Shown here one piece after another: positions 19,722-48,365 of a stretch of DNA of 64,000 bases (the stretch's first letter is position 1; each line of letters opens with the position of its first letter). Source of the stretch: Escherichia coli (lineage in GTDB: Bacteria > Pseudomonadota > Gammaproteobacteria > Enterobacterales > Enterobacteriaceae); assembly GCF_017348835.2 (NCBI RefSeq), contig NZ_CP071375.1. One strand, written 5' to 3'. Made by a program: the position numbers and the translations under genes. The notes below the pieces were generated by a model. The model searched no databases. It saw only the letters and a program-made list of their open reading frames with translations, and had not been told where the DNA came from.

Positions 19722-21965
19722 TCAGGCACTTTCGCGAATGGGTTCGATTTCATTCAGCGTATCAATTAACGGTTGCGGCTTACCAATAAGATAACCCTGC
19801 ATATAATCGATCCCCAAAGAGAGCACTGCCTCGCGGATCTCTTCGTTTTCAACGTACTCTGCCACTACCAGCATTTTCTTCATTCGCGCCAGGTGGCAAA
19901 TCGATGCCACTATCTGATAATCCAGACTATTTGACACAATATTGCGGATAAAACTGCCGTCAATTTTAAGCAGATCGGCATTCACATTTTTAAGCCGCGC
20001 ATAGCTGGCGTAGCCGGTGCCGAAATCATCAATCGCAATCTGGCAGCCTAATTCCTGAAGATGCTGCAAGGTGATTTGCGCCTGCTTAACATTGGTCAGA
20101 GCATTACTTTCGGTGACTTCAAAAATAAGTTGCCACGCTTCAATCTGATATTTAGCCAGCAACTGACTGACTTCAACAGGAAAACGAGCCTGACATACCG
20201 AGGTTGGAGACAGATTAATAGCAAAACGGTGAGCGGGCATCTTCGCTCTGTTTTCAGCCATAAATTGCAGCGTATGCTCAATGACCCACATGTCGATACT
20301 CGACGATAAACCAAATTCGTGCGCGACCGGCAAGAAGCTATCGGGGCTGATCAGTTCATCATTCTCACCTTTCATGCGCAGAAGAATTTCATGGTAAACA
20401 TCACCACGCATACCGGTAATTGGCTGGGCCATCAGGAAAAAATGGTTGTGTTCCAGCGCCTGCTGTAGTCGATTCATCATCGCGACTTTATCTTTCAATT
20501 CGCGTTGCAAATACATTGCCCCGCGACGCTGCATATTTTCCGGGGCGTTGGTCACGATGGAAAGTTCGGCGACCGTATTTAGCTCTCCCAGCAGCAGGTA
20601 GATATAATTCACTGGCGAGCGCACATAGCAGTAACTGACGCCAATCTGCGGTTGCATCGGCATGCCATCCCAAAAGAAACGAAATTGCTTGAGATGGCTA
20701 TCCAGTGCGGTAATGCGCTCCTGGTGCGATTCTGTATTCAGTCGCAGCGCGAGATCGTTACCCGAAAGCTGATAAACATCTTCACCCGGTTCCAGCAATG
20801 GTGACAGCCAGTGAGAAAGTTTTTGCTTGTATTGAATCCGCAGCATGATGCCATAGTTTTTAACCAGCATTTCCATGCCAGGGATGCGTAAATAACAAAG
20901 CGCAGACCAGGGGGCATCACGCAACGCGCGATTCAGGGCGCGAACATTTGGCAGATGAACCACCGGGTCCACATACGCAAGCCGCTGAATGCGTCTGACT
21001 ACCGTTCTCTGACGGGTTGCCAGTACAGCCATATAATTGACAATAAAAGAGAATACCAGATAACTGGAGGAGGTTATGGTCAGCTGCGTGGTATAGCCGG
21101 GATAAATGGGAATGTAATTTTGATAGCTGTGGATGCTGATCATCAACACGACCGCCCAGAGCAGTGAAATCAGCTTATAACCATAGCGCATCGCTCCCCA
21201 CATCATCAGGGGCAGCAATAATGACAAGGTATAATTGGTGCTAAAAATTGTGCTTTTTTCATTTAACGGCATGCATAACAGCAACAGTAAAGCACCTAAT
21301 GCCAGTAGCCAGAGTGCGAACTCTTTTTTGGTGACTTTGACATCAACCTGCTGTTTTAATTGCGAATAATAACTACGTAAATAAAACGGATTTCGAACTA
21401 CCCGAATGATGAAGTAGCACAGCGGGACACCAATCAGATTGCCCACCAGTAAGGCCTGATAATTGATTAAAGTCCCGAGGTTAAAAGGCATGACACCGAC
21501 CAGATTTTCTCTGCTCGCCAGTAATCCTACAAATGCAGCAAACTGGAAAAGTATCAGAAACAGCGTTGCAGGAAACACAATCTGCCAGAATATACGCTGG
21601 GAAATTAAACGGGTATCACCATGTGAAACGTTGTTACGCCGGGGAGTAAAGACCCTGTAACCGCCCCAACAGAGAATGATAATGATGATAAAATTAGCCG
21701 TTAATGAGAGCGTTTCGTAAAAACCCAGCTCTGCATATTTGCGGACAAAAATCCCTAAGGCGATCCCTGGCAATGCCGCCCAGCTGAAAAACATCATCAT
21801 GCTGATCATCAGTGCCAAAGGCAGATAAAAGAGAAAAACCTCACCGGAAGAAATATGCGCGAAAGTATTAATGTGGGCGAAAATAGGCAAGATTAAAGAA
21901 GGCAGGAACAGCGGAAGCCCCCACCATTTATCACGTATTTTTATATAAGTTGCATTCAGTTTCAT
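19722..21965 (-). CDS. pdeF: Cyclic-di-GMP phosphodiesterase PdeF (YfgF), membrane MASE1-GGDEF(degenerate)-EAL protein
   Basis: 747-aa ORF with hydrophobic N-terminal half and a C-terminal EAL-type domain; synteny. Confidence 0.85.
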   Translation of the reverse strand: MKLNATYIKIRDKWWGLPLFLPSLILPIFAHINTFAHISSGEVFLFYLPLALMISMMMFFSWAALPGIALGIFVRKYAELGFYETLSLTANFIIIIILCWGGYRVFTPRRNNVSHGDTRLISQRIFWQIVFPATLFLILFQFAAFVGLLASRENLVGVMPFNLGTLINYQALLVGNLIGVPLCYFIIRVVRNPFYLRSYYSQLKQQVDVKVTKKEFALWLLALGALLLLLCMPLNEKSTIFSTNYTLSLLLPLMMWGAMRYGYKLISLLWAVVLMISIHSYQNYIPIYPGYTTQLTITSSSYLVFSFIVNYMAVLATRQRTVVRRIQRLAYVDPVVHLPNVRALNRALRDAPWSALCYLRIPGMEMLVKNYGIMLRIQYKQKLSHWLSPLLEPGEDVYQLSGNDLALRLNTESHQERITALDSHLKQFRFFWDGMPMQPQIGVSYCYVRSPVNYIYLLLGELNTVAELSIVTNAPENMQRRGAMYLQRELKDKVAMMNRLQQALEHNHFFLMAQPITGMRGDVYHEILLRMKGENDELISPDSFLPVAHEFGLSSSIDMWVIEHTLQFMAENRAKMPAHRFAINLSPTSVCQARFPVEVSQLLAKYQIEAWQLIFEVTESNALTNVKQAQITLQHLQELGCQIAIDDFGTGYASYARLKNVNADLLKIDGSFIRNIVSNSLDYQIVASICHLARMKKMLVVAEYVENEEIREAVLSLGIDYMQGYLIGKPQPLIDTLNEIEPIRESA

Positions 21966-22316
21966 AGATGCTCAGCAGAATCCCCCACATCCTGAAGGAG
22001 GTGTATTCAGACAGGCATCCCACCTGACTTCGAATGATGATTATTCATCACTATAGAGAGCATTGATTCTAAGTGTCATATGAAAGTTCCAATTGATATA
22101 TATCAAACAAAATAACCCTGATTAATGAATTATTACGTTTATCATGTTAATTCATCATTATTACATCATCATTGTAAATAATTAAATTAACTTCCATAAC
22201 ATTAAAATATGTATCCACTGACGCTTTTTTACATAACGAAGAATTGACCATTTTGTCCTGTTGTGCCTTAATGTAAGTACCGTCCACAGCGTGGGACATA
22301 CTTCAAGGAACCTTTT

Positions 22317-22508
22317 GTGAGTCAGGCAACCAGTATGCGAAAACGACACCGATTTAACAGTCGCATGACCCGTATCGTACTGCTCATCAGCTTTATCTTC
22401 TTCTTTGGCCGTTTTATCTACTCGTCCGTCGGTGCCTGGCAGCACCATCAGAGCAAAAAAGAAGCTCAGCAATCCACACTCTCCGTCGAATCACCGGTAC
22501 AACGTTAG
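22317..22508 (+). CDS. yfgG: Small membrane protein YfgG
   Basis: 63-aa ORF (MSQATSMRKRHRFNSRMTRIVLLISFIFFFGRF...) at the K-12 position after pdeF. Confidence 0.7.
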   Translation: MSQATSMRKRHRFNSRMTRIVLLISFIFFFGRFIYSSVGAWQHHQSKKEAQQSTLSVESPVQR

Positions 22509-22601
22509 CGGTTACCTTCTCCACTTTCACAGAACATAACGGCACTTTGAACCGCCCCGGAAATCCTGGAGACTAAACTCCCTGAGAAAGAGGTAAACAG
22601 G

Positions 22602-22928
22602 ATGACTAAAAATACTCGTTTTTCCCCCGAAGTCCGTCAGCGGGCGATTCGTATGGTTCTGGAAAGTCAGGATGAATATGACTCACAGTGGGCGGCAATT
22701 TGTTCCATTGCCCCAAAGATTGGCTGTACGCCGGAGACTCTGCGTGTCTGGGTTCGCCAGCATGAGCGGGATACCGGGAGTGGTGATGGTGGACTCACCA
22801 CCGCTGAACGTCAGCGTCTGAAAGAGCTGGAACGTGAAAATCGTGAACTGCGCCGCAGTAACGATATCCTTCGCCAGGCTTCCGCTTATTTTGCGAAGGC
22901 GGAGTTCGACCGCCTCTGGAAAAAATAA
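22602..22928 (+). CDS. IS3-family transposase OrfA (HTH)
   Basis: 108-aa [25 protein letters not shown]... with a C-terminal leucine-zipper-like segment; ends in an A-rich stretch overlapping the orfB ATG. Confidence 0.85.
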
Positions 22929-23815
22929 TGCCACTGCTGGATAAGCTGCGTGAGCAGTACGGGGTCGGACCGGTATGCAGCGAACTGCATATTGCCCCGT
23001 CAACGTATTACCATTGTCAGCAACAGCGACATCATCCGGATAAACGCAGTGCCCGTGCGCAGCACGATGACTGGCTGAAGAAAGAGATACAGCGCGTATA
23101 CGATGAAAATCACCAGGTATACGGTGTGCGTAAAGTCTGGCGTCAGTTGTTACGGGAAGGTATCAGAGTGGCCAGATGCACTGTGGCACGTCTCATGGCA
23201 GTTATGGGACTTGCCGGTGTTCTCCGGGGTAAAAAGGTCCGCACTACCGTCAGCCGGAAAGCCGTTGCCGCATGCGACCGCGTAAACCGTCAGTTCGTGG
23301 CAGAACGTCCAGACCAGTTGTGGGTGGCTGATTTTACCTGGGTAAGCACATGGCAGGGCTTCGTTTATGTGGCGTTCATCATTGATGTGTTCGCCGGATA
23401 CATCGTGGGATGGCAGGTCTCATCATCCATGGAAACAACATTCGTGCTGGATGCACTGGAGCAGGCGTTGTGGGCCCGTCGGCCGTCCGGCACAATCCAT
23501 CACAGTGATAAAGGTTCTCAGTATGTATCGCTGGCCTACACGCAGCGGCTTAAGGAAGCCGGATTACTGGCATCAACAGGGAGTACTGGCGACTCGTATG
23601 ACAACGCGATGGCTGAGAGCATCAATGGTCTTTACAAAGCGGAGGTAATACACCGTAAGAGCTGGAAAAACCGGACAGAAGTGGAACTGGCCACACTAAC
23701 GTGGGTGGACTGGTATAACAATCGACGATTGCTGGAAAGGCTGGGCCATATTCCTCCGGCAGAAGCAGAAAAAGCTTATTATGCTTCCATCGGAAATAAT
23801 GATCTGGCAGCCTGA
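22928..23815 (+). CDS. IS3-family transposase OrfB (DDE integrase core), probably expressed as an OrfAB fusion by -1 frameshifting
   Basis: 295-aa ORF with an rve-type DDE catalytic region (…HSDKGSQYVS…DNAMAES…). Confidence 0.85.
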   Translation: MPLLDKLREQYGVGPVCSELHIAPSTYYHCQQQRHHPDKRSARAQHDDWLKKEIQRVYDENHQVYGVRKVWRQLLREGIRVARCTVARLMAVMGLAGVLRGKKVRTTVSRKAVAACDRVNRQFVAERPDQLWVADFTWVSTWQGFVYVAFIIDVFAGYIVGWQVSSSMETTFVLDALEQALWARRPSGTIHHSDKGSQYVSLAYTQRLKEAGLLASTGSTGDSYDNAMAESINGLYKAEVIHRKSWKNRTEVELATLTWVDWYNNRRLLERLGHIPPAEAEKAYYASIGNNDLAA

Positions 23816-24045
23816 GTTCACAGATAAAACACTCTCCAGGAAACCCGGGGCGGTTCAAACTCGTACAGTGGCGTACCACTGGGGTCCATTCCTTCAAGTC
23901 TCAGGGAAGCCTCTGCTTTGCGGAAGCCCTCAATGCGTAACCGTGTATAGGGAGTCCTAGACATGTTTTTCCTTTGAGTTGCAGGAGTGAGGTTCGCTCA
24001 GTGAAAGCGTCAGCTCACGCAACCTCGTTAACTGACGCGCGTGAT

Positions 24046-25446
24046 TCAAGATTTATTATTACCCGATAAGCTATCACCGGCAAAATCATCATGTTCGCGG
24101 TTATCCCGACGAGTAGCTGTTTGTTTACTTATCTGAGTCGCCAACTCCTCTCCAATAGTTTGTTGGGCACGAGAAGAACTGCTACTTCGCTTCATTCTCT
24201 GGTACTCAGCAGCTCCGTTAGCCATGCTGCTTCCCATATGGCTTGCCATGCGGCCAGCACGCGAGAATGAAGCAAACCCCTGACTTCCTCCACTGGCGCT
24301 ACCTGAACTGCTCCCTGCAGACGAACCACTGTAACCGCCTGAGGTTTGGCCTCCAGAAGTATCTACAGAACCGGTATCTTCCCCGCCGCCAAATCCTCCA
24401 CCGGAACCGCCTCCGCTGCCTGAACCAGATTCTTCGTCCATGGCAGCTTGCGCAGACTCGAATGCTGCCTTTAATGCTGAAGCTCCGCCGCTGACTTGAG
24501 CTGATGCCCCCATTGCCATTGCTCCAGCACCGCTGATGGCAGTAGCGGCTGCGCCGGTAATCATACCCGCCCCAAATCCACCAATCCCTTGTAAAGAAGC
24601 CCCTCCTACAACACCTGATAACAACAGTGGTAGCTTATTAGTTAATACTAACAGGATAATTGACGCCAGAAGCAAAACTATAAGACTATTAAGATCAGGA
24701 ACATCATCTTTAATAAGAGAAAAATATTGATCTATAAATGATTGTCCAATCCCAATAATTAATGTCATCGTGAATAATTGAATGCCAATCGATAAAACAG
24801 TTCGTAAGTAATTAATTGCTATATCAGAGGTCCATTTCGAACCACCAAACCCAAGCAATATAACTCCTGCATAACATAACACCCATGCAGAAACCAACAT
24901 GATTAGCATATTTATCGCTATAAGGGACATCACTACCAAAACGATTATCGCGACTGTTATCATAATGGTGGATATCATTGGCGACCAAATTGATGCGGCT
25001 GAACTGATCTTGGTTAATATCGCAAACGCCATATCAACTATGCTTGAGGGAGAAATACCAATACTTATTTCTAAAGCGTTTGCTGCAAGTTGTCTCATTG
25101 AATTAATTATGGATTGCGATATGGATGGACCGTTGATTAAAAGATAATAAAAAAAACCAATGACGGCAAAAAAGCGAACTATTTCAGCAAGTACCCCTGT
25201 CAACCCTTCCCCTTGCATCGCCATCATACCAAATGTCCAAACCATACTTATTAATACCAGCCCCCAGAAGAGCCAATTTGCATAGTCAGCAATTACTGCT
25301 GTCCATGTACTGGCTACTTGTTGAAACTTATCTAATAAAGTATCAAGTAGCCCGCTACTATCTAATTGACCAGCATAGGCATTAATAGAAAAGAAAAGTA
25401 TGATACCTAAAAAGGTGAGCTTACTTACTATTTTCATGATTACCAT
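24046..25446 (-). CDS. TrbL/VirB6-like type IV secretion membrane protein with a Gly/Ser-rich C-terminal tail
   Basis: 466-aa ORF with signal peptide, multiple TM segments and a low-complexity GSGSGGGSGGG tail as in P-type TrbL; gene order trbJ-trbK-trbL. Confidence 0.65.
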   Translation of the reverse strand: MVIMKIVSKLTFLGIILFFSINAYAGQLDSSGLLDTLLDKFQQVASTWTAVIADYANWLFWGLVLISMVWTFGMMAMQGEGLTGVLAEIVRFFAVIGFFYYLLINGPSISQSIINSMRQLAANALEISIGISPSSIVDMAFAILTKISSAASIWSPMISTIMITVAIIVLVVMSLIAINMLIMLVSAWVLCYAGVILLGFGGSKWTSDIAINYLRTVLSIGIQLFTMTLIIGIGQSFIDQYFSLIKDDVPDLNSLIVLLLASIILLVLTNKLPLLLSGVVGGASLQGIGGFGAGMITGAAATAISGAGAMAMGASAQVSGGASALKAAFESAQAAMDEESGSGSGGGSGGGFGGGEDTGSVDTSGGQTSGGYSGSSAGSSSGSASGGSQGFASFSRAGRMASHMGSSMANGAAEYQRMKRSSSSSRAQQTIGEELATQISKQTATRRDNREHDDFAGDSLSGNNKS

Positions 25447-25631
25447 TCTCGTTTAGGGCTTGGTTTATTATTACTCCGTAGAGCACATTTATCGTATTTA
25501 TGTTCATCAAATTTATTATCTGGCATCGATAAACAATCTTTATCATTTTTATCGCAAGAACATATGGCCAATAAACTGATCAGAATAAATACAATCAAAA
25601 AATTATCTTTCATTCTGCGTTTCCTCACCAA
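25440..25631 (-). CDS. Small lipoprotein, TrbK-like (candidate entry-exclusion protein)
   Basis: 63-aa ORF with a signal peptide, an imperfect lipobox-like LAICSC segment and a Lys/Asp/Cys-rich mature part; sits between the trbJ-like and trbL-like genes as TrbK does in IncP plasmids. Confidence 0.45.
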   Translation of the reverse strand: MVRKRRMKDNFLIVFILISLLAICSCDKNDKDCLSMPDNKFDEHKYDKCALRSNNKPSPKREW

Positions 25632-26419
25632 ATTCGCTTCGGGCTTGGTGTATTCTCTCCAGCTAACGCTTTTTCATCAGCGGCTATCTGTTGTGATTCT
25701 TTATCTGCCTGAGCCTGTGCCAGTGTTGCTGCAGCGTTTTGTTGGGCTACCAGAAGTGAGCGGATTTGCAGTAACTGATTTGTCTGTGCACTGGCAAGCT
25801 GGTTTGCCGCCTGAATAGCTTCCATTTGCCCTTGTGCGCCGCTTGCCTGAGTTTGTAATTCGGCAAGATTATCAGCATCGCTCTGCAGGGTGTTCTGCTG
25901 CTCGTCAATTACCTTAAATACTGCGTCATTGGCCTTTTTACGCGCCCCTGAGCTATTCTGTTCAGCTTCACGCAGTGCACTAATTTCAGACGCGGTACAT
26001 TCAACATTGCTGTTAAAGCAAGACGATGTCCTGTAGTAGTTAACATCCTGATAGCGTTTCAGGTACGCATCGAGACTCCCGGCCTGATTCTTGTAGTAAT
26101 TAAGGGTATCCTGCACCTGCAACAATTTATTAATTGTTGAATTTGCCTGGTCCCAGATATAGGCCGCAGGAGCTACGGTGTTCTGCAGCATGTTTTCATA
26201 CTGCTGCAGCTGCGTCTGGTACTGCTGGATTTGTTTAGTCACAGCCTGAACGTTGTTAACTGCGCTGATTGTGGTCTGAACCACATTAGTGCCATCAATA
26301 ACGGGAATTCCGGCCTTCACCGGTAATGCCATGACGGACGCCACGAAAGGAACTATTAAAGCTTTTTTAGCGGCTAAAATCCCTCTTTGTGATGAAACCA
26401 CTCGGAACTTTAAATTCAT
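25625..26419 (-). CDS. TrbJ/VirB5-like type IV secretion protein
   Basis: 264-aa ORF with signal peptide and Gln/Ala-rich coiled-coil-type sequence; GAGGTGA Shine-Dalgarno 5 nt upstream of the ATG at 26419. Confidence 0.6.
   Translation of the reverse strand: MNLKFRVVSSQRGILAAKKALIVPFVASVMALPVKAGIPVIDGTNVVQTTISAVNNVQAVTKQIQQYQTQLQQYENMLQNTVAPAAYIWDQANSTINKLLQVQDTLNYYKNQAGSLDAYLKRYQDVNYYRTSSCFNSNVECTASEISALREAEQNSSGARKKANDAVFKVIDEQQNTLQSDADNLAELQTQASGAQGQMEAIQAANQLASAQTNQLLQIRSLLVAQQNAAATLAQAQADKESQQIAADEKALAGENTPSPKRIW
26366..26378. promoter_or_regulatory. 13-bp palindrome TTTAGCGGCTAAA (KorB operator-like), copy 1, inside the 5' end of the trbJ-like gene
   Basis: Exact perfect palindrome; matches the IncP KorB operator consensus TTTAGCSGCTAAA as recalled. 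Confidence 0.5.
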
Positions 26420-26499
26420 TTGCTCACCTCTTTTTCAACAGATTAGTAATATTTAACACTCTGTCTGTTAACAGACGCAGGTATATAGGAAACCACACA

Positions 26500-26865
26500 T
26501 TATTTATCCAAGATTTTATCCATAATGTTCCTTAGTTCTTGCCGAGTTGATTCTATTTTCGCAAGCAAGGTTCTTATCAGTGTGGGTGAAAAATCAACTG
26601 TTCGAGGATCATTTGCGAGCCATAATTTAAGTAATCCGCCAAGTCTTCCAAGATCAGCATTTACTCGGCTAAGTTCATTAACCTGTTTTATATCTACGAT
26701 AGAATCAACCTGATAACCCATTGCAACTCTACGAACAAAACAGGCAACACTTAATCCAGATGCTTCTGCATTTTCTTGGATGAGAATTTTTTCTTCGGGT
26801 AAACAATAAACTTTTATTGGCGTACTATTTTTTCTAGTCTGAGTAACTTTCATATAGCTCTCCAT
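26500..26865 (-). CDS. MobC-like relaxosome accessory protein (ribbon-helix-helix-type)
   Basis: 121-aa ORF; the segment VYCLPEEKILIQENAEASGLSVACFVRRVAMG and the following DLGRLGGLL fit the MobC-family pattern recalled from memory. Confidence 0.45.
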   Translation of the reverse strand: MESYMKVTQTRKNSTPIKVYCLPEEKILIQENAEASGLSVACFVRRVAMGYQVDSIVDIKQVNELSRVNADLGRLGGLLKLWLANDPRTVDFSPTLIRTLLAKIESTRQELRNIMDKILDK

Positions 26866-27252
26866 ACAGGCGGTAGCCTGGCAGCCTCGCAGAGCAGGAC
26901 GCCCTTGAGCCGCGATGCGGCGAATAGGGAGTGGTAAAGTTGGAACACCGTAGCGGTGGGCCCACTTTACATGTCCTGCCCTGCAGTTGCCGTTGTATAT
27001 CTGTGCACGACAATGTGTATTTCAGTGTACAGGATGTGTTTTCTTAGCGTATTAATATAGGATTACTGGAGTAAATTTCTGCAGCAAATGTGTTTTTTGC
27101 AAGGAAACTATATTTCTCCCTTTTGAAAATGACCTTTAGTAGTTATAAATGGACGTCCACCAACTGTATTTATGTTTCGATATATTGTAAGAAGTCTTTC
27201 ATTTTCCGATGCACTTTTTTACTTACCTTGTCAGAGCATGTGCATTGCAGAT

Positions 27253-36404: not shown

Positions 36405-36440
36405 GCCGCGGCATTATACAGAGCGTAACCGATTGCATCT
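36405..36440 (-). promoter_or_regulatory. guaBA promoter region with a pur-box-like operator and -10 element
   Basis: Minus-strand TATAAT (reverse complement of 36413-36418) and GCAATCGGTTAC (reverse complement of 36425-36436), resembling the PurR operator consensus GCAAACGTTTGC; both upstream of the guaB start. Confidence 0.45.
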
Positions 36441-36500
36441 ACCCCTTTTTGCAAAAAATGCTTGCTATCCCCGAAGGGCGGGTTACTATCGACTGAATAA

Positions 36501-37907
<1,407 letters not shown>

Positions 37908-37975
37908 GCCGGAAAAAAGGCGCCAGCATCGCATTAGGCAATAGCGCCCAGGCTACGCCAAATGCGCTCCCCTCG

Positions 37976-40900
37976 TCACTGGAAACAAGTAACCAGACCA
38001 GGTTTATTGGCTAACGTGATACAACAATCCTCTGTGCCAGTGCTCTCGTCCATCCCACACCGTTGAGAGGACAAGTAAGGGAAACTTGGCGAAGCTGGCC
38101 ATCCCAGCGAATTAAACACAGTATACAATGTCTCTAACTCATTGTATGTCGGTGCATTTTCTATATTTCCACACTGCTTCGAGATATCCCATTTGCTGGC
38201 ATCAGTAATATGCGCAGAAGCCCAGTTTTCGTAGTTAATAATCGGTGAGGATACGGGATTGGCCCCGGACGGTAATTCAGTTGTCAGTATCGGTCGATGT
38301 AATGTTTTTCCATTCACCACTGCCGTGTCTGCCATATGCCCCCAGAAGTGAGCAGAAGATACATTTGGGCTGGTCAATACGGTGAAAATAGTGTCCATCA
38401 TTGCAGTCACTGTTGGGTATTTATCCAGCGTTACCGTCAGCGGCATTTTATAACCCGGCGTATTGTCCTGACGAACAGTAAAGTTTGCCGTGCCGTCTGC
38501 CCCCGTCACGCCACTGATCTCGTTCCCACTAACCGCCAATAGGGTAGCCGCCCCCGATGATGGCTGGATGGTAATATCATCCATAGCCGCCACATCGCCA
38601 TATAGCGTCGCCCCACTATTACGCGGAGAGGCATCACCACGTCGCAGAGTAAACGCCACATTTGGCACAGGTTTCCCGGCGCTGTCTTTCACCGTCACGG
38701 TGACTGGCATTGCCTCGCCCTTCTTCACTTTCGCCGCCTGAGCGGTGGAGTCAAATGCCGTTGACGTCAGGGTGACGGTAGAAACCGTTGAGTGAGGGTG
38801 CACCAGGCACGCCTGGAAGGCGCGGCTTTTAGATACAGTCACAAGTTGACCTGTGTTGAAGTCAAATGATTCACAAGAATTCGCGCCCGCAGGACAATCT
38901 GCATTTGTCCACCACACATAGCTATTCTGTTTCACCGGCCAGCCAATCTCATTGACGATAGAGCCATTCGGATAGCGGTTGTATAAAGATTGAAGCTCAT
39001 CCAATGATGGATATCGTGCGCTTTCACAAGGGATAAGCTCCGGCAAATATCGCTGGGTAATATATGGCGCAGGCCAGCTTTCATTATTTATATTCACTTT
39101 AGTGAGCGAATAACCGCCACCGCTGGTTGCCCCCATTTCGGCCCACAGTTTCATCCGCTCAAACTGCGTTCCGTCTGCTGAGCTTACCGTTTCTGGCATA
39201 TGTCCCCAGAAGTTGGCTTTTGGCGTATCCGGGCTTGTTACTACGGTATACATCAGGTCGAGATCTGACTTTACCCCTGTTTCACGTGCAAGCGTCGCCG
39301 TAAACGGTGTTACCAGTCCCCAGGTATTATCCTGCGTAGCGGTTAACGTGATGATGCCATTACCGTCCGTAACCCCGTTCCAACTGGCGTTATCATCTGC
39401 AAATTTGTAATTGGCTTGCGCAACCGGCGTCAGGAACTGTAGCAGCAGATCATCTGCTGTCGAGCTTGTGAAATCACTCGGCGTGCGCACTTGTGCTGTC
39501 GCACGCGACAACCTGACGCTTTCATAGGCGGCAGGTCTGCCCGCATCATCCGTGACCTTGATAGTTAACGGTATTGATACGCCCTTCTTCGCCCATGCAG
39601 TCGGACGGTTGTCGTTGATGCCTGTTTTGTCCGCATTCAGCAACGTAGACGTCAACTCAATCGTCGTTGCCTCAGTGTGCGGGTCAACCAGGCAGAGCAT
39701 TAAATTGCCCGCCGTCGATGTTGTACTTTCGTTGCGGATAGCACCGCTCATCAGATCAAGCACCTGGTTATACCATGTTGAACTTGAAACAGTTTGGTCG
39801 TACGCCCACCAGTAATTACCTGCGTTAAGAGGCAGCCCCAAATCAGTTTCCAGCGCACCATTTGGATGGTCGTTGTAAAGCCCCATTAGCTCACTACTGA
39901 AGGGTTGATAAGGCGAAGTGCAGCCTGAGATCGAACTGTTCGCTTTGTTGGTTGCATCTGGTCGCGCCCAGTCTTCATTGTTGATATTAAAGGACGCAGT
40001 CCCGGACAACTCGGCCTTCAACTGTGGTCGCCTGAACGCGACGCCCGCGCTGCTGGTAAAGGTTTCCGGCATATGGCCCCAATAGTTAGCCTTCGGCGTA
40101 TCCGGGCTGGTGATCACTGTGAAAATCGCACTTAAAGATTGTGAAGCAATCGAACCATCGTCCAGTTTCGCCAACAACGGAATACGAACGCCATATCCTT
40201 TATGGAACTGATATACCGTCAACGTCGCCGTTCCGTCAGGCCCGGTAACACCATAAAAATCATCGCCCTCATTAATGATTGGCGTTTGATGATTGGATGA
40301 ATCCGTGATGTAAATTAATTTCGACTGGTAATCTGAACTTACTACATTCTGACGGCTAAGCGTCGCACCATGTTCCAGCAAGAAGGGTACATTACCCAGC
40401 AGATTTCCCTGCGCGTCGCGCGTTGTGACCTTAATGGTGATGAAATCATGATCAACTTCATAATTGGTTTTTGCTTTAACCCCCTGATTACCATCATAAA
40501 CCTGCGCTTGTTCAGAGGTTAACTCAATTGTGGCGACCTTCGGGTTAGCCGTTGTCTGGCAGGTTAAATACCCCCCTTTTGACTCCAGTACACTGCTGGT
40601 GCCATTACTCAGTTGCACACCAAGGTAATTACGATTACTTACGCTGGCACCATCGGCGGTGCTGGTGTCATAGACTTTTAATACTGGCCAGCCGTCTACA
40701 GCATGACCGCCCCAGCTTGTCGATAACGTGGTTAATGCATCTTTGGTCGGGATATTATCTGCGCCACAACCGTTATTTTTCGCATTCTTACTTGCCTGCG
40801 CTTCAGTAAACAGCGCCCAAATTTCGTTATCCTCTTCCGGGCTTTTACGTCCATTGCCGGGAGAACCACTCAGTTCTGAAAACAGGATCGGTCGCTTAAA

Positions 40901-43900
40901 CGTCAATCCTCCCGCTGTGAGTGTTTCTGGCATATGCCCCCACATTTTTGCCTTGTTAGTGTCAGGGCTGGTGACAACGGTAAAAATAGTGTCTAACGAT
41001 GCGTTTTTTGTTGGATCGGAATAGAGCGCAGCGGTAATTGCCGTTTTCGTGCCGTGAGTGTCCGGGCGGGTGATGGTGAGAATTTTGCTACCGTCACTCC
41101 CCGTTAACCCAGCGTATGCACTGGCAGTATCGTTAAGCGACATTTCATCTGACATTCCGGCATCCACCACGACCGGTGAAACGATCCCGTCACCGCTTCC
41201 TGCAATATGCTTTTCATTGCTACGGGTGTAACCATCGCCACGCTTCAGGGTAAAGGGCATTCCCGGCATCGGGTTACCCGCCGTATCTTTCACCGTGACT
41301 TTTACCTGTAGCGTTTCACCCTTTTTCAGTTTCGCTGCATTAAGCGTGCTATTCCACTGTGCCTGATCGACCACTTCCAGCGTAATGGTGCTGGCGGGTG
41401 GGTTAGCGTCCTTCAGGCAGGAGATATAAATTTCCGAGGAACTTGTTTGCACGTTTCCGTTATTCAGCCAAACCGCTGCAAAGTGCGGGACTTTATCGGT
41501 AGGCGTGCTACTCCAGTAAGGCTGGCGCTGAGTCGGCCAACCATGCTCAGTTTGAATCGCGTTATTACTGTTGGCGCGATAGAGCGCATCAAGCTGTGAC
41601 TGGCGTGGCACTTTATTGGCCTCACAACCGCCCACCGCGCTATTTTCGATCTCGGACTGATCGACGCGTAACCAGGTTTCATTATTTTCATCAAAGGGAC
41701 GCCCGGAACCGCTTACCTCCACCGCCAGTTTGGGGCGATTAAATGTAATAGAATCCACAGTTATCGTGTCATCCATGTGCCCCCACATTCTCGCTCCCAT
41801 CACATCCGGGCTGGTGGGAACCGTAAAGATTACATAGTAGTTAATGGTATTCGGCAGAACAGAATTAGGAGGCGTGACAACAAGTCGCGTTCTTAAGCCA
41901 ACGCCTTGTGGCTGCTCAACAACAACGGTTGCCTGCCCCTGTGCGTCTGTAATACCGGAGTAAACCATTGAGGATTGTGAGGTACCGTACTGCGTCCCAT
42001 TCAGGGTTATTGCGCCGTTACTGGGATCGGTAAACCCGGTTGCGCTTTCTTCACGGTCAAGACTGATATCTTTGGTAATAGTAAAAGCCGTGAACGGCAC
42101 CCGCTCGCCATTCAGAGCATTAACTGTGCGCACCGTCATGGTGATTTGTTCACCGACTTTCGCCCGTGCCAGGCTGCCCGAGGTAGTATCACGATCGGTT
42201 GTCACTTCAACCTTCGCCACCATCTCATTACCAGAGCACGAGAGATAGTTTTGTTTAAAACCGCTATAACTGTCGACGTTCCCTGTTCCGAGGTTTACCG
42301 ATGAATGCGTTGTCTGCTCCGCGGCAGTTAAATAGTCCTTTACTGCGGTTGGCCAGCCATACTCAGTCCCGATGATATTGCCAGGGTAAGCCGAATACAG
42401 ACTTTCCAGTGAGATCTCACGCGGTATATGCCCCGTGCCGCATTCTGCCTGCATACTGGTATTTTGATCGAATAACGCCCAGTCTTCGTTATTTTCCCGT
42501 ACTGTGCCTATTTCATGCGTGGTTTCAGCCGCCAGCAGCGGTCGTTTATATAAACTGCCAGCATCAATAATGCCGTGCATGTGGCCCCACATCCGCGCAT
42601 ATTCGCTGTCCGGACTGGTCACCACCGTAAAGACCACATCTTTGGCATCTTCAGCAGTGAAATTACTGCGCATTTTCGCCGTAATATGCGTTTTAACGCC
42701 TGCGCCGTCAGGCTGCGTCAGCAGCAGAGTTGCCTGACCATTGACGTCGGTCATTCCCTCATAATTATGATCATCTACCTTTTGCAGGTTGGTGCCGCCG
42801 GAAATTTGTACCGGATGCGCTTCCCACGCCGGATCGGTTTGATTTTTGCGGTTAACGCCGTCATCGAGATGCAGCGAGAAGTAGTAATAAGCCAGCGGCT
42901 GATTGTTATTTTTTTTATCGGTAATGGTCAGGCGTATCGTAGTGCTGTCACCGACCTCTGCCTTCGCGGCATTTATACTTTCATCAAAGTTACTGGGCGT
43001 GAGCACCAACTCTGGCTCAACATCGGGTTCTGCTTTATCCACACAGCTCACGATATACTTTGTACTGTCTGGTTTTTGCGCTTCGCTGCGGTTAGACACA
43101 TCAGCCGCGTGGTGCTGCCCGGTACTTCCTGCCAGAGATGACCAGTAATAATCACCCTGCATCGGCCAACCGGCGGTCTCCTGAATAGAGTTAGGGATCA
43201 CCGTAGCCAGCGCGCCAAACTGGCGCATGCCAGGCAAAATATCGCAGTGGTTATCTGCGCCACTCCAGGTGAAGGTCGACCAGGTTTCACCGTGATCGTT
43301 CACACTGCCATCTTCGTTATCAACTTCCGCCGCCAATTTCGGACGACTAAAGGTGTAATTCATGGCCGTCAGGGTTTCCGCCATATGGCCCCACATATTG
43401 GCCTGCGGGGCATCCGGGCTGGTGAGTACAGTAAATATCACCGCCGTTTCACTGGTTTGCGAGATGCCAGAAAGGCTGACCACCAGCGGCGTTTTGACAC
43501 CTGGACCATTGGGCTGCGTCACCGTGACGGTAGCTGCGCCATCAGCATTAGTCGTGCCCCGATACTCCGTTGCTGTGGTGGTGAGTTCAGTGGTATCAAG
43601 ATTGACAGGTGAGGTGTTATTCACCACTCCCTGGCGGTTTTCAGCATCTTTTCGTTTGATAACAAAAGGGATATTGCTCGCAATATTACCTTCACAATCT
43701 TGGGTGGTTACGGTTAAGGTGATTGAACCATCGACAGTAGTCTTTGCCGCTTGTAACGTATCGTCATAGCCACTGGCGCTAATTGTCACCAGGTCGCCCT
43801 GGGCGGGAGCAATATTCAGCGTCACTTTATGTTCAGCCAACGGCACCGTCCCCTGATTAGGCACACCAGTTAACGTGTAGAGGTAGAGTAAAGGTAGCGC

Positions 43901-44386
43901 TTCCTGCTCATTGATTCGCGGCCACGCCACCAAAGAACGCCCTGCCAGATTCTGCGCGCAGAAAGAGCGGTCCGGGCGCGGTTGTGGGCTGAGCGGCGTA
44001 TCTGGCGTCGCGGCATCCGTCCACACAAGAGATACAGCAGGAGGCGTCTGGTTTTGCCAGCCTAGCACGGGGGGATTAGAAAAAAGATCGCCTTCAGGAT
44101 CGTGAGGGTTAACCAGAATCATTCTCGCCGCTGTGTCATCAACACTGAATGCGCTGGGTTTTACAGATGCCTGAATGTCGTAGGTTTTGCTCGGATCAAG
44201 CTGAACGCTTCCCTGATAAACGGGTACGCTGGCGCTCTCTGCCCCGGGCACTGTGCCATTGATTGCGTCGGTCGAGATGCCAGTTTGTTGCCACTGGCCA
44301 CCTTTTAATACTGCCCCAACCTGAAAAGAGAGGAAGAGCAGAAAAACCGCCGTTATCGCTTTTATCAGTTTCAAAGTCCCGTCCAT
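37976..44386 (-). CDS. Giant surface-exposed repeat protein (RatA/RatB-like), 2136 aa, seven tandem ~290-aa modules
   Basis: Signal peptide, then seven modules each ending in the signature (I/V)FTV(L/V)TSPD-x5-(M/Y/F)WGHM-x12-16-RP(K/I/Q)L...NNE(D/N)W; position between xseA and the sinI/sinH-like genes, as recalled for the Salmonella CS54 island. Confidence 0.6.
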
Positions 44387-44520
44387 GATTGAAACCTGCC
44401 CGTTTAAAGTTATTTTTTCACTTCAACCCACTTTGCTTAACGCTGGCTAAGCAAAGTGTGCGGAGAAGCACCATTCCCTTGCTGAAATGACCAGATTGTT
44501 GACAAAGTGCGCGTTATTCA

Positions 44521-44620
44521 TGCCGGATGCGGCGTTAACGCCTTATCCGACCTACAAAATCGTGCAAATTCAATACATTGCAGGAACCATGTAGGCCTGA
44601 TAAGCGAAGCACATCAGGCA
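44521..44620. repeat. Pair of inverted REP units (BIME-like)
   Basis: TGCCGGATGCGGCGTTAACGCCTTATCCGACCTAC at 44521-44555 and GTAGGCCTGATAAGCGAAGCACATCAGGCA at 44591-44620. Confidence 0.8.
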
Positions 44621-44676
44621 GTTTTGCCTTTGTCATCAATCTGACCATTCCCTTGCGGGAATGGTGCTGGTAAAGA

Positions 44677-45642
44677 TTATTTTCTCTGGTAATCGATGGA
44701 CAAACCGTAGCCCTGAACACCATCCGCGCCAAGGGTGAGGCCACCTTCGCTGTAGTCGAACGCAGTTTTCGCTTCGGCGTTGGTAACTGGGATAACCAGG
44801 TCGCTGTTGTTGTAGCTCGGGTTGACAATCCCACCGTTGGTACGCAGTTGCAGACTGGTACCGGTAAAGCGCCAGCGGTAGTTGTACTGGCTGGTAACCT
44901 CTTCGCCAGTGTCGTAGGAGCCGTTGCTGTTTTTATCTTTCCACAGCATGACCTGATAAGTGGTATTGGTTTTGAGTTTGGTTTCTTTGCCCAGCAGGTT
45001 GGTGTTAACACCCTGCTCATGAATGACAACTTTAACCGCATCGTCAAATACCGGACCTTCCGGAATATCATCGCTGTCAGAACCACCGCCCGCGTTGGTG
45101 GAGAGGTCTAACAGGATCAGTTGTTCTGCAACGTTAGGATCACCGGTCGTGGTGGTCGGGGTAATTTTCAAACCGATGTAGCGATCGGCATCCGCTGCGG
45201 CAATGGTATAGGTGTCACTGCCCGTTGTACCGATCTCTTTCGGATCACCCCCCGCCTGGTCGCTATAGCTCATCCATTGCAGCGTCGCTTTGGTTGCAGT
45301 GTTGTTGTCGTCAAGGTCGCCCTGGGTATCGCCAATGGCCCAGTTTGCAGTTAACTTGTCACCAATATGAAATTGCTTCTCGCCATCGGTTGAAGCAGAA
45401 CGTCCGCCACGATCAACGGTAATGGACACATGAGATTTATCGGCATCAGTCGTTTCTGACGCGCTACGGGTGATCCACGGCACGGTACCCTGAATCGTTC
45501 CGGTCGTTTGCGTCTCTGACTGCCACTGGCCCGCTCTAAGGTTGCCCTGCCCTTCTGCCATGGCGGCAGGCACTGCGCAGTACCCCGCTAAAGCCAGCGC
45601 CAGCGCGACTTTAGTCATCGGTCGCTTTAAATAGTGTTTCAT
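44677..45642 (-). CDS. SinI-like secreted/outer-membrane-associated protein
   Basis: 321-aa ORF (signal peptide MTKVALALALAGYCAVPAAMA if started at the internal Met) whose C-terminal ~100 aa are homologous to the C-terminus of the adjacent 726-aa protein. Confidence 0.55.
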   Translation of the reverse strand: MKHYLKRPMTKVALALALAGYCAVPAAMAEGQGNLRAGQWQSETQTTGTIQGTVPWITRSASETTDADKSHVSITVDRGGRSASTDGEKQFHIGDKLTANWAIGDTQGDLDDNNTATKATLQWMSYSDQAGGDPKEIGTTGSDTYTIAAADADRYIGLKITPTTTTGDPNVAEQLILLDLSTNAGGGSDSDDIPEGPVFDDAVKVVIHEQGVNTNLLGKETKLKTNTTYQVMLWKDKNSNGSYDTGEEVTSQYNYRWRFTGTSLQLRTNGGIVNPSYNNSDLVIPVTNAEAKTAFDYSEGGLTLGADGVQGYGLSIDYQRK

Positions 45643-45697
45643 TCAACTCTCTCCTTGATTAATTTCCAGCGGCTGGCCGATCGGCCATTACGCCGAT

Positions 45698-47878
45698 CTA
45701 GTGCTTGCTGTAAACCACACGTAATCCATACCCCTGCACGCCATCCTCTTTTTGGGCACCAAATTTCTGTACCGCTTCCTCGTTAGTGGCAGGGATGACA
45801 ATATCTTCATTACTGGTATTCGATTGCGCACCGGTGTAGCCATTGACGCTGTGTCCGGTAAATTCCCACTGGTAGTCGTATTGCGCCATTTCTTCTTCCG
45901 TCAGTTTTTCCGACTGCTGGAAAACGCCATCTTTGTTGACATCGCGCCACAGGACAAAACGATAGGCGTTATCAACAGGCAAATGCTCTTTCTCATTGCC
46001 GATAAGATTGATGGGGTTAGTCGCGGATACACGGTAGATAAAGGCATTAACATCGTTGCCCCCCGCGCCGAGGAAAGTCACATCGACATAGTTACTATCG
46101 TCATACGGTGCGGCCTTTGCTTTCCAGCGGAAGGTGCCGGGCAAAGTACTGGAGAGGGTGACGGTTCCTTTCTCTTTATCTTGCTTCGCGATAAAGACGC
46201 ACGGGTTATCGGTCGAGCAGGGTTTATTGGTGAGGGTGACTTTTTTATCCTGAGCATCGTAAAGCTGCGGACTCAGGCCATCTTCCGGCAGCGCATTACC
46301 GTTACGGTCAGTGTCATCACCAAAGCTATCGGTAACATCGAGATCCATCACCACGCCATCGACGCCATCCGCCTGAGCGCTGGCTTCATGACTGTGATTG
46401 TTTTCATCCGGCACATCCGCAATGTTGTTGACGATCAGTTCAATTTTGCGATCCTGCTGAACGGTGATTTCCACCACGCCGGAGTTTTGCCGGTTGCCTT
46501 TTTCATCTTCCAGAGCCAGACGCACGCGCCAGGTATTGAGTTTTTCCTGTTCGGCGGGATCAGAGCTGTACTGCCAGGCTGGCAGCACCAGATTCCAGTG
46601 GTTGTTGTTCCCTTCCGTGAGGGTATTTTCTTTGATAACCGGCATCACCAGAGTACGCGCAGCGTTGTTTCTCGCCTGCCAAGAGGCGACGACAATCTTA
46701 TAGTGATGATTGATTAGCGCATTGATTGTCCACTTACATTTTTCCAGCCCTACCGCAGCTTCGGGGGTGTCCTTGATGACACAATCCGGGTGTTCATTGG
46801 TGGCGTCAGCCTTCAGCCACAACGTAACGTCGAGAGGATCTTTTTCTTTATATTCCAGAACAATAAAATTATTGCGCTCAACAAAGTCATGGCGGCTGCC
46901 CATCAGCGAGTGAGCTGCTTTGACGTTATCGCTATTCAGTTGATCTTTTAGCGGAACACCGAACTGATAGTTAATCGTGGCGTTAACGCTAAGATCACTG
47001 TTATCTCCGGTACCTGCTTTATAATCCGTCCCGACCGTCAGTAACGGAACGGGTTGATAGTTCACGCCAAGCGTCACTGCATAGGGATCTTTTTCTAAAT
47101 TATCGGTGCCGAAGAGCGCCACTTCGTCACCATAATATTGCTCGAAAACAATTTTGCTCCCCAACTGAGGATAAGAAGGAAGCCTGGCTTCCGCCCGGAC
47201 ATCCCAGCCACGTGCGGGGCGTTCTAAATAGAAATCAAAATCTTTTGAATCTTTCCACTCTGAAAGCGGATGATAATAGTTACCAGAAAATTTTAAATAA
47301 TCCGTCCAGGCTTCTGTTCCCAAACCTAAACGGCGATGTCCGCGGGTGAAATCATAATCATAAAATATATTCCCCCCCAGAAGCCATTTATCAAAATTAT
47401 GTCTTACACCTAAACCTATATTACCTATCGTGCGTTCTTCTTTTCGTTGCGCAGAAAACTGACTGAAATAGACTGTGCTCTGATTGTCATACCAGGGGAC
47501 AAAATAGTCGATTGAACTGCCGTCCAGATCGCCACCCTGACCGATGGAAAGGTTAGAGCGAACTTTACCATAAGGAGAAAGCGCACCTTCGATATAAGAC
47601 TGTGCAGATGATGTGATTTGCCCTTGCAGATAGCTTCTCGCCTGGGATTCAAGAGCTTCTGGAGTCAGGTTCTCAAAGCCCTGCTGGGCGGACTCGGTAA
47701 CGTAATTGGCACCACGTTCCTTGAAAGATTTGCCTTTGTTACTTTGTTCCTCTTGTTGAGCCGTTTCGCTTGCCAGATCAGGTAATGAAGATTCGCTTTG
47801 CTTAATATTTATCTCCGGTGCCGCATAAGCAGCACCAGAAATAACGATTAGCGTTATATAGCGAATCCATCGCAGCAT
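45698..47878 (-). CDS. SinH-like intimin/invasin-family outer membrane protein (inverse autotransporter-like)
   Basis: 726-aa ORF with signal peptide; beta-rich N-terminal half (a candidate barrel) and a C-terminal passenger; length and position match Salmonella SinH as recalled. Confidence 0.55.
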   Translation of the reverse strand: MLRWIRYITLIVISGAAYAAPEINIKQSESSLPDLASETAQQEEQSNKGKSFKERGANYVTESAQQGFENLTPEALESQARSYLQGQITSSAQSYIEGALSPYGKVRSNLSIGQGGDLDGSSIDYFVPWYDNQSTVYFSQFSAQRKEERTIGNIGLGVRHNFDKWLLGGNIFYDYDFTRGHRRLGLGTEAWTDYLKFSGNYYHPLSEWKDSKDFDFYLERPARGWDVRAEARLPSYPQLGSKIVFEQYYGDEVALFGTDNLEKDPYAVTLGVNYQPVPLLTVGTDYKAGTGDNSDLSVNATINYQFGVPLKDQLNSDNVKAAHSLMGSRHDFVERNNFIVLEYKEKDPLDVTLWLKADATNEHPDCVIKDTPEAAVGLEKCKWTINALINHHYKIVVASWQARNNAARTLVMPVIKENTLTEGNNNHWNLVLPAWQYSSDPAEQEKLNTWRVRLALEDEKGNRQNSGVVEITVQQDRKIELIVNNIADVPDENNHSHEASAQADGVDGVVMDLDVTDSFGDDTDRNGNALPEDGLSPQLYDAQDKKVTLTNKPCSTDNPCVFIAKQDKEKGTVTLSSTLPGTFRWKAKAAPYDDSNYVDVTFLGAGGNDVNAFIYRVSATNPINLIGNEKEHLPVDNAYRFVLWRDVNKDGVFQQSEKLTEEEMAQYDYQWEFTGHSVNGYTGAQSNTSNEDIVIPATNEEAVQKFGAQKEDGVQGYGLRVVYSKH

Positions 47879-48087
47879 GTTTTTCCCTGTGAAAATTTAA
47901 TTCTGAAATAATGTCTAATATTGTATTCCAGATAGCACAGGAACTGCACTCCATAAGTGCTAAATATAATCTTAAAATTATAAGAATGTGACTTTACACA
48001 TTTTTAATTAGTCGTTAATCTAATAGGAAAGAGATTATAATATTTATATTAGGAATATATAATGTGAAATCATATATTCCAGTGATA

Positions 48088-48303
48088 TTAAACAATGACA
48101 AATTCAATACGGGTTTTAGAAATTAAACCGTGACCATGCAGGCAGAAATAATCCACCGCACCACACGCTTTTAATACCTGCAACGGTTGGTGGCAGTCAG
48201 GACAAAGAGCCTGGACTATGAAATCTTTGTTACACGTTGCGCAGTGAGTAGCCTCGCCATTACGTTCGAGAGGGTTTTGGCAGATTGGGCAGCTGAGTTC
48301 CAT
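48088..48303 (-). CDS. yfgJ: Zinc-ribbon protein YfgJ
   Basis: 71-aa ORF with two CxxC pairs (CPICQN...CATCNK; CPDCHQ...CLHGH). Confidence 0.85.
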   Translation of the reverse strand: MELSCPICQNPLERNGEATHCATCNKDFIVQALCPDCHQPLQVLKACGAVDYFCLHGHGLISKTRIEFVIV

Positions 48304-48365
48304 AAATGATCCTCACATTTTTATGGGTTTCCCTCTCCATATGGAAAGGGAAACCAGATAAGTAA

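Follow-up and report, generated by a model that had tools for sequence, protein, structure and literature searches.

An IS629-anchored deletion next to yfgG in porcine Escherichia coli removed yfgH, yfgI and the distal part of a GIsul2-like island

The yfgG–guaA interval and its insertion sequence

The window analyzed here, a 64-kb stretch of Escherichia coli DNA, carries between the chromosomal genes yfgG and guaA a complete insertion sequence (IS) and, to the right of it, island genes annotated as trbL, trbJ, traJ, repA-like and int (Table 1). The alignment with K-12 breaks off at window position 22547 and restarts at 33251, at the 3' end of guaA, and the 1,431 bp of K-12 that contain yfgH and yfgI are absent from the window. 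The left breakpoint, located by alignment to K-12 and to the closely related strain F2_81 (see below), lies between 22547 and 22548; both of these genomes run on from CACTT into CGCTGTCGG at this point. A first-pass annotation had described a 1310-bp element of the IS3 family with recognisable inverted repeats which follows yfgG directly, precedes island DNA and marks the place where yfgH and yfgI are missing relative to the K-12 gene order. This description was borne out in all respects, with 39 bp separating yfgG from the IS and the genes from trbL to int following it.

The IS is intact and measures exactly 1,310 bp. It starts with TG and ends with CA (TGAACC...GGTTCA; terminal sequences TGAACCGCCCCGG...CCGGGGCGGTTCA). 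Its terminal inverted repeats of 25 bp, delimited by an inverted-repeat search, are imperfect; the search program itself extended them to 27 nt (89%), as two bases outside the IS happen to pair. Over 1310 of 1310 bases the element is 99.5% identical to the IS629 deposited for phage BP-4795 (AJ556162.1). The product of orfA corresponds to positions 1–86 and that of orfB to positions 93–369 of the IS3 transposase model NF033516 (311.8 bits for orfB at a cutoff of 160), the ALIL pseudoknot RF01497 is complete (120 bits; gathering score, 50), and the RefSeq annotation of strain PE164 joins 22602–23815 as a transposase with programmed frameshift. Based on length and identity, on the TG/CA inverted repeats and on the frameshifted orfA/orfB genes for an IS3-type DDE transposase, we assign the element to IS629. 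IS629, also called IS1203, is a member of the IS3 family known from Shigella and enterohaemorrhagic E. coli. The copy described here shares with known IS629 the length, the termini, the -1 frameshift between orfA and orfB, the ALIL pseudoknot and the occurrence of many copies per genome, with IS629-like sequence at 32 sites of the PE164 chromosome, at 26 in F2_81 and at a single one within the window. Structurally it does not differ from them. What sets it apart is its context, that is, a porcine strain and a position inside an island at guaA, and the fact that its flanks are accounted for by a specific, reconstructable deletion.

The flanking sequences read GGCACTT on the left and AACTCGT on the right, and no target-site duplication of either 3 bp (CTT versus AAC) or 4 bp (ACTT versus AACT) was found upon inspection of both ends. 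The difference between CTT and AAC had been noted before, and it persisted when the exact ends of the IS were re-inspected for an identical flanking duplication. A duplication of 3–4 bp is a typical but not an obligatory feature of IS629. The interval originally singled out, 22509–24045, comprises the IS together with both short flanks.

Table 1. Features between yfgG and guaA (coordinates refer to the window)
Feature	Position	Strand	Remarks	Basis
yfgG	22317..22508	+	Intact, 63 aa; final chromosomal gene ahead of the deletion	ORF list; RefSeq annotation of PE164; K-12 alignment
Residual yfgG-yfgH intergenic DNA	22509..22547		39 bp; ends with CTT	K-12 and F2_81 alignments stop at 22547
IS629 (IS3 family)	22548..23857	+	Complete; sole copy in the window	Ends; full-length match to IS629 of BP-4795
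IRL	22548..22572	+	Deletion ends on the right at its outermost base	Inverted-repeat search; blastn breakpoints
IS629 orfA	22602..22928	+		ORF list; N-terminal part of NF033516
ALIL pseudoknot RF01497	22883..22999	+	Stimulates -1 frameshift to OrfAB transposase	Rfam, full length
IS629 orfB	22928..23815	+	DDE catalytic part; intact	NF033516; RefSeq frameshift join
IRR	23833..23857	+	Island junction unchanged relative to the ancestor	Junction identical in F2_81
Surviving proximal island	23858..33253		9.4 kb; int, LuxR-like, HTH, RepA-helicase-like, traJ, trbJ, trbL	Annotation; collinear with F2_81 and uninterrupted islands
5' fragment of HigA-family antitoxin-like HTH gene (144 aa when complete)	23858..23964	-	35 codons plus 2 nt	Flanks in frame with each other in F2_81; intact in uninterrupted islands
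trbL	24046..25446	-	Backbone	TIGR02783, 270 bits
trbJ	25625..26419	-	Backbone	NF010452, 379 bits
Tyrosine integrase gene (int)	31762..32952	-		86.6% aa identity to GIsul2 integrase WP_000954590.1
att repeat AAATCATTCCCACTC	33254..33268		Sole remaining copy	Twice in F2_81, once in the window
guaA	33257..34834	-	Intact	Annotation; K-12 alignment

Comparison with a sister genome

A 2.5-kb stretch around the IS is present in full in only one of 5,426 complete E. coli genomes, that of PE164 (NZ_CP114128.1), a porcine strain (diarrhoea and blood) from Nanjing. The window and this record share an identical IS junction and differ at 6 of 42,501 positions, all of them single-base differences; the window is therefore either PE164 in a different assembly version or an isolate that is its sister. 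Strain F2_81 (NZ_CP043542.1), which stems from a pig in Australia, is about 0.03% divergent from the window, with 9 differing positions in approximately 33.6 kb of flanking DNA. PE164 and F2_81 are the two complete genomes by which this lineage is sampled.

The order in F2_81 is yfgG-yfgH-yfgI-att-PsyrA-PsyrT-DUF2326-ABC-3C, followed by an antitoxin-like gene that is interrupted by IS629 and then by trbL...int-att-guaA. In blastn comparisons, window positions 20150–22547 match positions 21312–23709 of the F2_81 locus (L002), and positions 22547–33734 are collinear with L002 positions 32522–43709 at 99.955% identity. The IS629 copies of the window and of F2_81 differ by one synonymous base, and their right junction, GGTTCA followed by AACTCGTACAG, is the same. 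Because F2_81 has kept the K-12 gene order, and because uninterrupted islands exist elsewhere, its arrangement is taken, on the strength of these sequence comparisons, as the ancestral one.

Relative to F2_81 the window lacks L002 positions 23710–32522, i.e., 8,813 bp. One endpoint of the deletion is the first base of the left end of IS629 (window 22548; L002 32523), and the other is located 39 bp past the yfgG stop codon (window 22547; L002 23709). The junction is ambiguous by 1 nt, a single T that is common to L002 23709 and 32522. Lost with the segment are most of the antitoxin-like gene, a candidate defence module (ABC-3C/PDC-M68), the PsyrT/PsyrA genes, the distal att repeat, yfgI, and yfgH along with its promoter/upstream region; the lost island cargo amounts to 7.4 kb. 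The comparison with F2_81 thereby supports the earlier suspicion that an IS-mediated adjacent deletion or recombination had taken yfgH-yfgI and the distal end of the island, possibly with its second att site and its cargo.

The lost RecQ-like gene was identified with PADLOC as psyrT (E = 6.6e-278) and the DprA-like gene as psyrA (E = 1.6e-136), both by full-length matches, and the lost DUF2326 protein matches component B of the candidate system PDC-M68 (E = 6e-44). PsyrTA is a defence/toxin-antitoxin system made up of a RecQ-like toxin and a DprA-like antitoxin; the lost gene pair matches both models. Both partners disappeared together from the window, whereas they are kept in F2_81 and in five other E. 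coli genomes. The deletion removed two phage-defence modules as well as yfgH and yfgI, and it left the island stranded by the loss of an att site.

Several searches indicate that the deleted DNA is gone and has not moved. The 8.8-kb segment has no match anywhere in the 64-kb window. A match to yfgH-yfgI is present in 5,424 of the 5,426 complete E. coli genomes and missing altogether from two, so complete loss of this gene pair is very rare. F2_81 is the sole genome with 100% identity in this search, the next match has 99.5%, and PE164 is not among the best 60 matches, all of which are full-length and at least 99.2% identical. A relocated copy from the same clone would be expected at second rank. 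Likewise, the island cargo is matched with at least 99% identity by exactly six genomes, which do not include PE164. A relocation of the lost segment was thus rejected, given the lack of a match in the window and the absence of PE164 from the top-ranked matches for both of its halves. As for the possibility raised in the first-pass annotation that yfgH and yfgI are present elsewhere, they are absent from the window and were undetected in the searches of the PE164 assembly.

The same searches bear on whether the structure could have arisen during assembly, by collapse of two real IS629 copies flanking the 8.8 kb and omission of the DNA between them. IS629 is found at about 30 places in the genome, a repeat of 1.3 kb is hard to resolve with short reads, and the distance of six bases between the window and the RefSeq record implies that the sequence was revised or re-derived. 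However, the same junction is present in the window and in the RefSeq record. Moreover, the 8.8 kb are unique and would normally survive as a contig of their own, which was not found in the PE164 assembly searches. Since this unique DNA would have to vanish from a finished assembly, we consider such a collapse extremely improbable. Besides helping to annotate the strain, the deletion is useful as a marker by which PE164 can be told apart from its sister clone.

The island at guaA and its interrupted antitoxin-like gene

The integrase of the island shares 86.6% amino acid identity, across 395 of 396 residues, with WP_000954590.1, the integrase of a canonical GIsul2 element comprising alpA, repA, repC, trbJ, trbK, trbL, ars, ISVsa3 and sul2. 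The 15-bp att repeat overlaps the guaA stop codon, and its other strand contains GAGTGGGA, the core that has been described for GIsul2 at the 3' end of guaA (PMC9376610). Int-dependent excision and integration have been demonstrated for GIsul2 (PMC9376610). In addition to the integration site, the two elements have in common the order of int, repA helicase gene, trbJ, trbL, a toxin-antitoxin-type gene, cargo and distal att. Based on the integrase, the core at the guaA 3' end and the backbone consisting of a repA-type helicase gene and trbJ-trbL, the island is assigned to the GIsul2 family of integrative elements, with a size of about 16.8 kb in its intact form and with different cargo. GIsul2 is guaA-specific and carries sul2 and arsenic resistance; by contrast, the island lacks sul2, CR2/ISVsa3 and ars, and the cargo of its full relative consists of phage-defence genes (PsyrTA, ABC-3C/PDC-M68). 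A LuxR-like gene and traJ are further differences to GIsul2, as is the lack of annotated alpA and repC genes.

The window has lost both the cargo and the distal att; of the two att repeats that bound an element of this family only one is present, the second being located inside the deleted segment. The sequence thus describes a truncated remnant and not a complete element. With one att site left and the integrase deprived of a partner site, we infer that the remnant should no longer excise and should be locked in place. We also considered that the IS had cut a large conjugative island. This was rejected because uninterrupted relatives and GIsul2 itself show that trbJ-trbL with a small antitoxin-type gene and cargo directly behind them are the normal arrangement, and the two trb genes are not what is left of a truncated T4SS. 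An uninterrupted relative of the junction between trbL and the antitoxin-like gene occurs in 112 of the 5,426 complete E. coli genomes (about 2%).

The antitoxin-like gene (435 bp) matches the HigA model TIGR02607 and Pfam HTH_3, and it shows a weak match to Pfam VbhA (E = 0.098). Those two thirds of the gene that lie to the left of IS629 are retained in F2_81 and deleted in the window. Islands in which the gene is uninterrupted are present in E. coli WP2-S18-ESBL-08 and EC100, and the uninterrupted target was also found in Providencia, Erwinia, Yersinia, Lonsdalea and one metagenome-assembled genome. The insertion in F2_81 reads ...TTAACGGAT-IS629-AACTCGTAC..., as compared to ...TTAACGGACTCGTAC... 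in the uninterrupted target, to which Lonsdalea iberica provides an exact allele match. The duplication at this ancestral copy is imperfect in that there are three extra bases, GAT/AAC in place of the target GAC, with the base touching each IS end being changed. Because the flanks join in frame and match the uninterrupted genes of seven genomes except for the three extra bases, the ancestral IS629 is best read from these alignments as a simple insertion with an imperfect duplication, and the idea that it marks another deletion was rejected. The ends GAT/AAC could, although this is rather improbable, reflect spacer bases of an IS-circle junction that were carried into the target.

The imperfect ancestral copy affects how the missing duplication in the window is to be read. 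The first-pass annotation had treated it as a sign of deletion. The absence itself stands, whereas its evidential value does not: the missing duplication alone is not diagnostic because the ancestral copy was already imperfect, and it is not decisive because perfect 3–4-bp duplications have been found at just 21 of 47 IS629 sites in O157 genomes (PMC3271280). It is the comparison with F2_81 that provides the proof.

Regular simple insertions are represented by IS629 in pdeF of F2_81, a lineage-specific new copy with the duplication TTT, by IS629 in yfgI of CE10 (GCCC) and by IS2 in the same antitoxin-like gene of WS3294A (GCGAG). Among the seven E. coli genomes with the cargo or its remnant, two IS3-family elements, namely IS629 and the IS2 of WS3294A, have thus hit this gene independently, which might, if with rather low probability, indicate selection for its inactivation.

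Course and route of the deletion

The breakpoint falls on the terminal base of an IS629 that was already there, the IS is intact, its far side is unchanged and the deleted DNA is absent. Such a combination is the hallmark of adjacent deletions mediated by an IS. The sequence comparisons make it very probable that IS629 was present first and that an IS-anchored deletion of 8,813 bp, sparing the IS, occurred later in the PE164 lineage. According to this model, a GIsul2-family island at the 3' end of guaA would first have received IS629 in its antitoxin-like gene, and the DNA between the left tip of the IS and a point 39 bp 3' of yfgG would then have been deleted. The IS of the window lacks a duplication because its flanks are one new (CTT) and one old (AAC).

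As to the enzymatic route, which we infer from the product, we favor with some reservation an adjacent deletion driven by the transposase in one step. Rather than the opposite IS end, the cleaved 3'-OH of the left end would have attacked an upstream site on the same molecule, with replication then fixing the loss of the intervening DNA. Transposases of the IS3 family have been reported to delete adjacent DNA while leaving the IS intact, with endpoint homology of no more than 6 bp (PMC8860574), and deletions bordering IS629 are on record for O157 (PMC9943667). For copy-out-paste-in elements, 'sloppy attack' alone fails, according to a review, to explain resolved deletions, so that replication or repair has to be postulated as an additional step.

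Alternatively, a second IS629 in the same orientation may have entered the yfgG-yfgH intergenic region at the target CTT, followed by RecA-dependent recombination between the two copies. The 8.8 kb and one IS copy would thereby be looped out, and the IS left behind would be a hybrid, bordered on its left by the flank of one copy and on its right by that of the other. This is exactly the structure observed, and since both routes lead to the same product, sequence alone cannot separate them. The new copy in pdeF of F2_81 documents that IS629 transposes in this lineage, the copy in CE10 yfgI with its normal duplication is an example, from another lineage, of a same-orientation insertion in this neighbourhood, and the IS150-mediated rbs deletions of the long-term evolution experiment have been ascribed to recombination between IS copies (PMC4173774). 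However, a rare insertion in the correct orientation into a target of 8.8 kb is required before recombination can take place, whereas transposase-driven adjacent deletion is inherently local, and for this reason the one-step route is preferred. An intermediate with two copies would show GGCACTT followed by TGAACC as well as GGTTCA followed by CTTCGCTGTCGG; the junction between yfgG and the left end of IS629 was found in PE164 alone among the 5,426 genomes, and none of them represents such an intermediate. With just two genomes available for the clone, this absence weighs little. The window holds one copy of IS629, whose sequence contains no informative mosaic. Taken together, we regard insertion of a second copy followed by recombination as possible but less probable.

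Processes other than ordinary strand transfer by IS629 were also weighed, that is, illegitimate recombination or microhomology end joining, the latter perhaps promoted by the IS-excision enhancer (IEE) after the transposase had cleaved one end only. In O157, inactivated genes and deletions of neighbouring DNA have been linked to IS629, and according to the same report, IEE-dependent deletions next to IS629 range in size from a few bases to over 40 kb (PMC9943667). One T is shared at the junction. Yet a microhomology of 1 nt corresponds to chance expectation, and it is very unlikely that a random endpoint falls exactly on the terminal base of an IS. Moreover, IEE-type events normally take all or part of the IS; as all 1,310 bp are kept here, end joining after excision is unlikely. 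We consider this group of explanations highly improbable.

The adjacent deletion thus favored resembles those made by IS3 on reporter plasmids (PMC8860574) and the IS150-mediated rbs deletions (PMC4173774) in that the IS survives, the deletion starts precisely at one of its ends and stops at a variable point in the neighbouring DNA, and the endpoints share no meaningful homology. Those cases are experimental and have known ancestors, whereas the ancestor is deduced here from a sister strain. Furthermore, transposase dependence has been shown for IS3 on plasmids (PMC8860574), whereas the sequence of our locus is compatible with one or two steps. It is tempting, if rather improbable, to read the locus as a natural record of two aspects of IS3-family mechanics that are otherwise seen mostly in engineered systems; the first of them may be a one-step adjacent deletion made by the transposase of a copy-out-paste-in element, with the IS wholly retained, and the second the GAC duplication of the ancestral insertion, symmetrically altered next to both IS ends.

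Events of this kind are already known, the present one being an ordinary IS629-anchored deletion in a GIsul2-family island, and it leaves the knowledge of IS629, of IS-mediated deletions and of GIsul2-type elements unchanged. Its value lies in being a clean, reconstructable case in which an active IS eroded a mobile island and neighbouring core genes together. The locus has just two unusual points, namely the rarity of the loss of yfgH-yfgI and the odd duplication at the ancestral insertion.

IS629 and IS2 in the antitoxin-like gene

The ancestral IS629 insertion, preserved in the near-identical pig strain F2_81, is bordered by an imperfect duplication of its target. The uninterrupted GAC target was confirmed in seven genomes; in F2_81 it has become GAT at the left flank of the element and AAC at the right flank. 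On both sides the altered base is the one adjoining the end of IS629, and the alteration is symmetric across the two strands. Spacer bases of the IS circle junction may have been carried over into the target.

In strain WS3294A, the same 435-bp antitoxin-like gene of the guaA island is split by IS2 at another position. Thus, among the seven E. coli genomes with this cargo or its remnant, two different IS3-family elements struck this small gene.

Coordinates of insertion sequences, island segments and neighbouring genes
Feature	Sequence	Position	Remarks
Flanks of ancestral IS629	F2_81 locus (L002)	32513-32522 (left), 33833-33842 (right)	right flank = window 23858-23867
IS2	WS3294A locus (L014)	10124-11454	1,331 bp; regular 5-bp duplication GCGAG
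Additional IS629 in pdeF	F2_81 locus (L002)	20003-21312	normal TTT duplication
Empty site of that IS629	window	20150-20153	
IS629 within yfgI	CE10 locus (L013)	8821-10130	orientation same as window copy; regular GCCC duplication
Slot from DUF2326 gene to distal att	EC100 locus (L004)	6814-10687	
Slot from DUF2326 gene to distal att	F2_81 locus (L002)	25285-28754	
pdeF	window	19722-21965	747-aa reading frame, intact
Stretch absent from K-12, xseA-der interval	window	37808-48362	about 10.5 kb
Annotated adhesion-domain protein	window	37976-44386	2,136-aa reading frame, within the xseA-der stretch
hyfR	window	about 4928-6939	annotated frameshifted pseudogene in PE164 and F2_81

Mobility of IS629 in the neighbourhood

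F2_81 carries an additional copy of IS629 in pdeF at a site that is empty in the window, and the element therefore transposed after the divergence of the two strains. Yet another copy lies within yfgI of strain CE10, where phage lysis and endosialidase genes are found immediately past yfgI. IAI39 and other genomes resemble CE10 in showing a two-piece match across yfgG-yfgH-yfgI.

The distal cargo slot

The cargo slot, which extends from the DUF2326 gene to the distal att site, is variable. In EC100, whose island is uninterrupted, the place that PsyrTA occupies in F2_81 is taken by genes of the helix-hairpin-helix, PP2C phosphatase and vWA types. At their distal end, these guaA islands appear to have an exchangeable slot for defence genes.

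Differences from PE164 and K-12

The window differs from the RefSeq record of the porcine strain PE164 at six single bases (window 3577, 3578, 14003, 20606, 20908 and 23698), and probably represents a sister isolate or a different version of the assembly. The difference at 20908, where the window has C and the RefSeq record T, falls within pdeF, which in the RefSeq annotation of PE164 is a pseudogene with an internal stop. Between xseA and der, where K-12 has only yfgJ, the stretch absent from K-12 holds reading frames of 321 and 726 amino acids in addition to the adhesion-domain protein. Its position presumably corresponds to that of the CS54-type sinH/ratA island of Salmonella.
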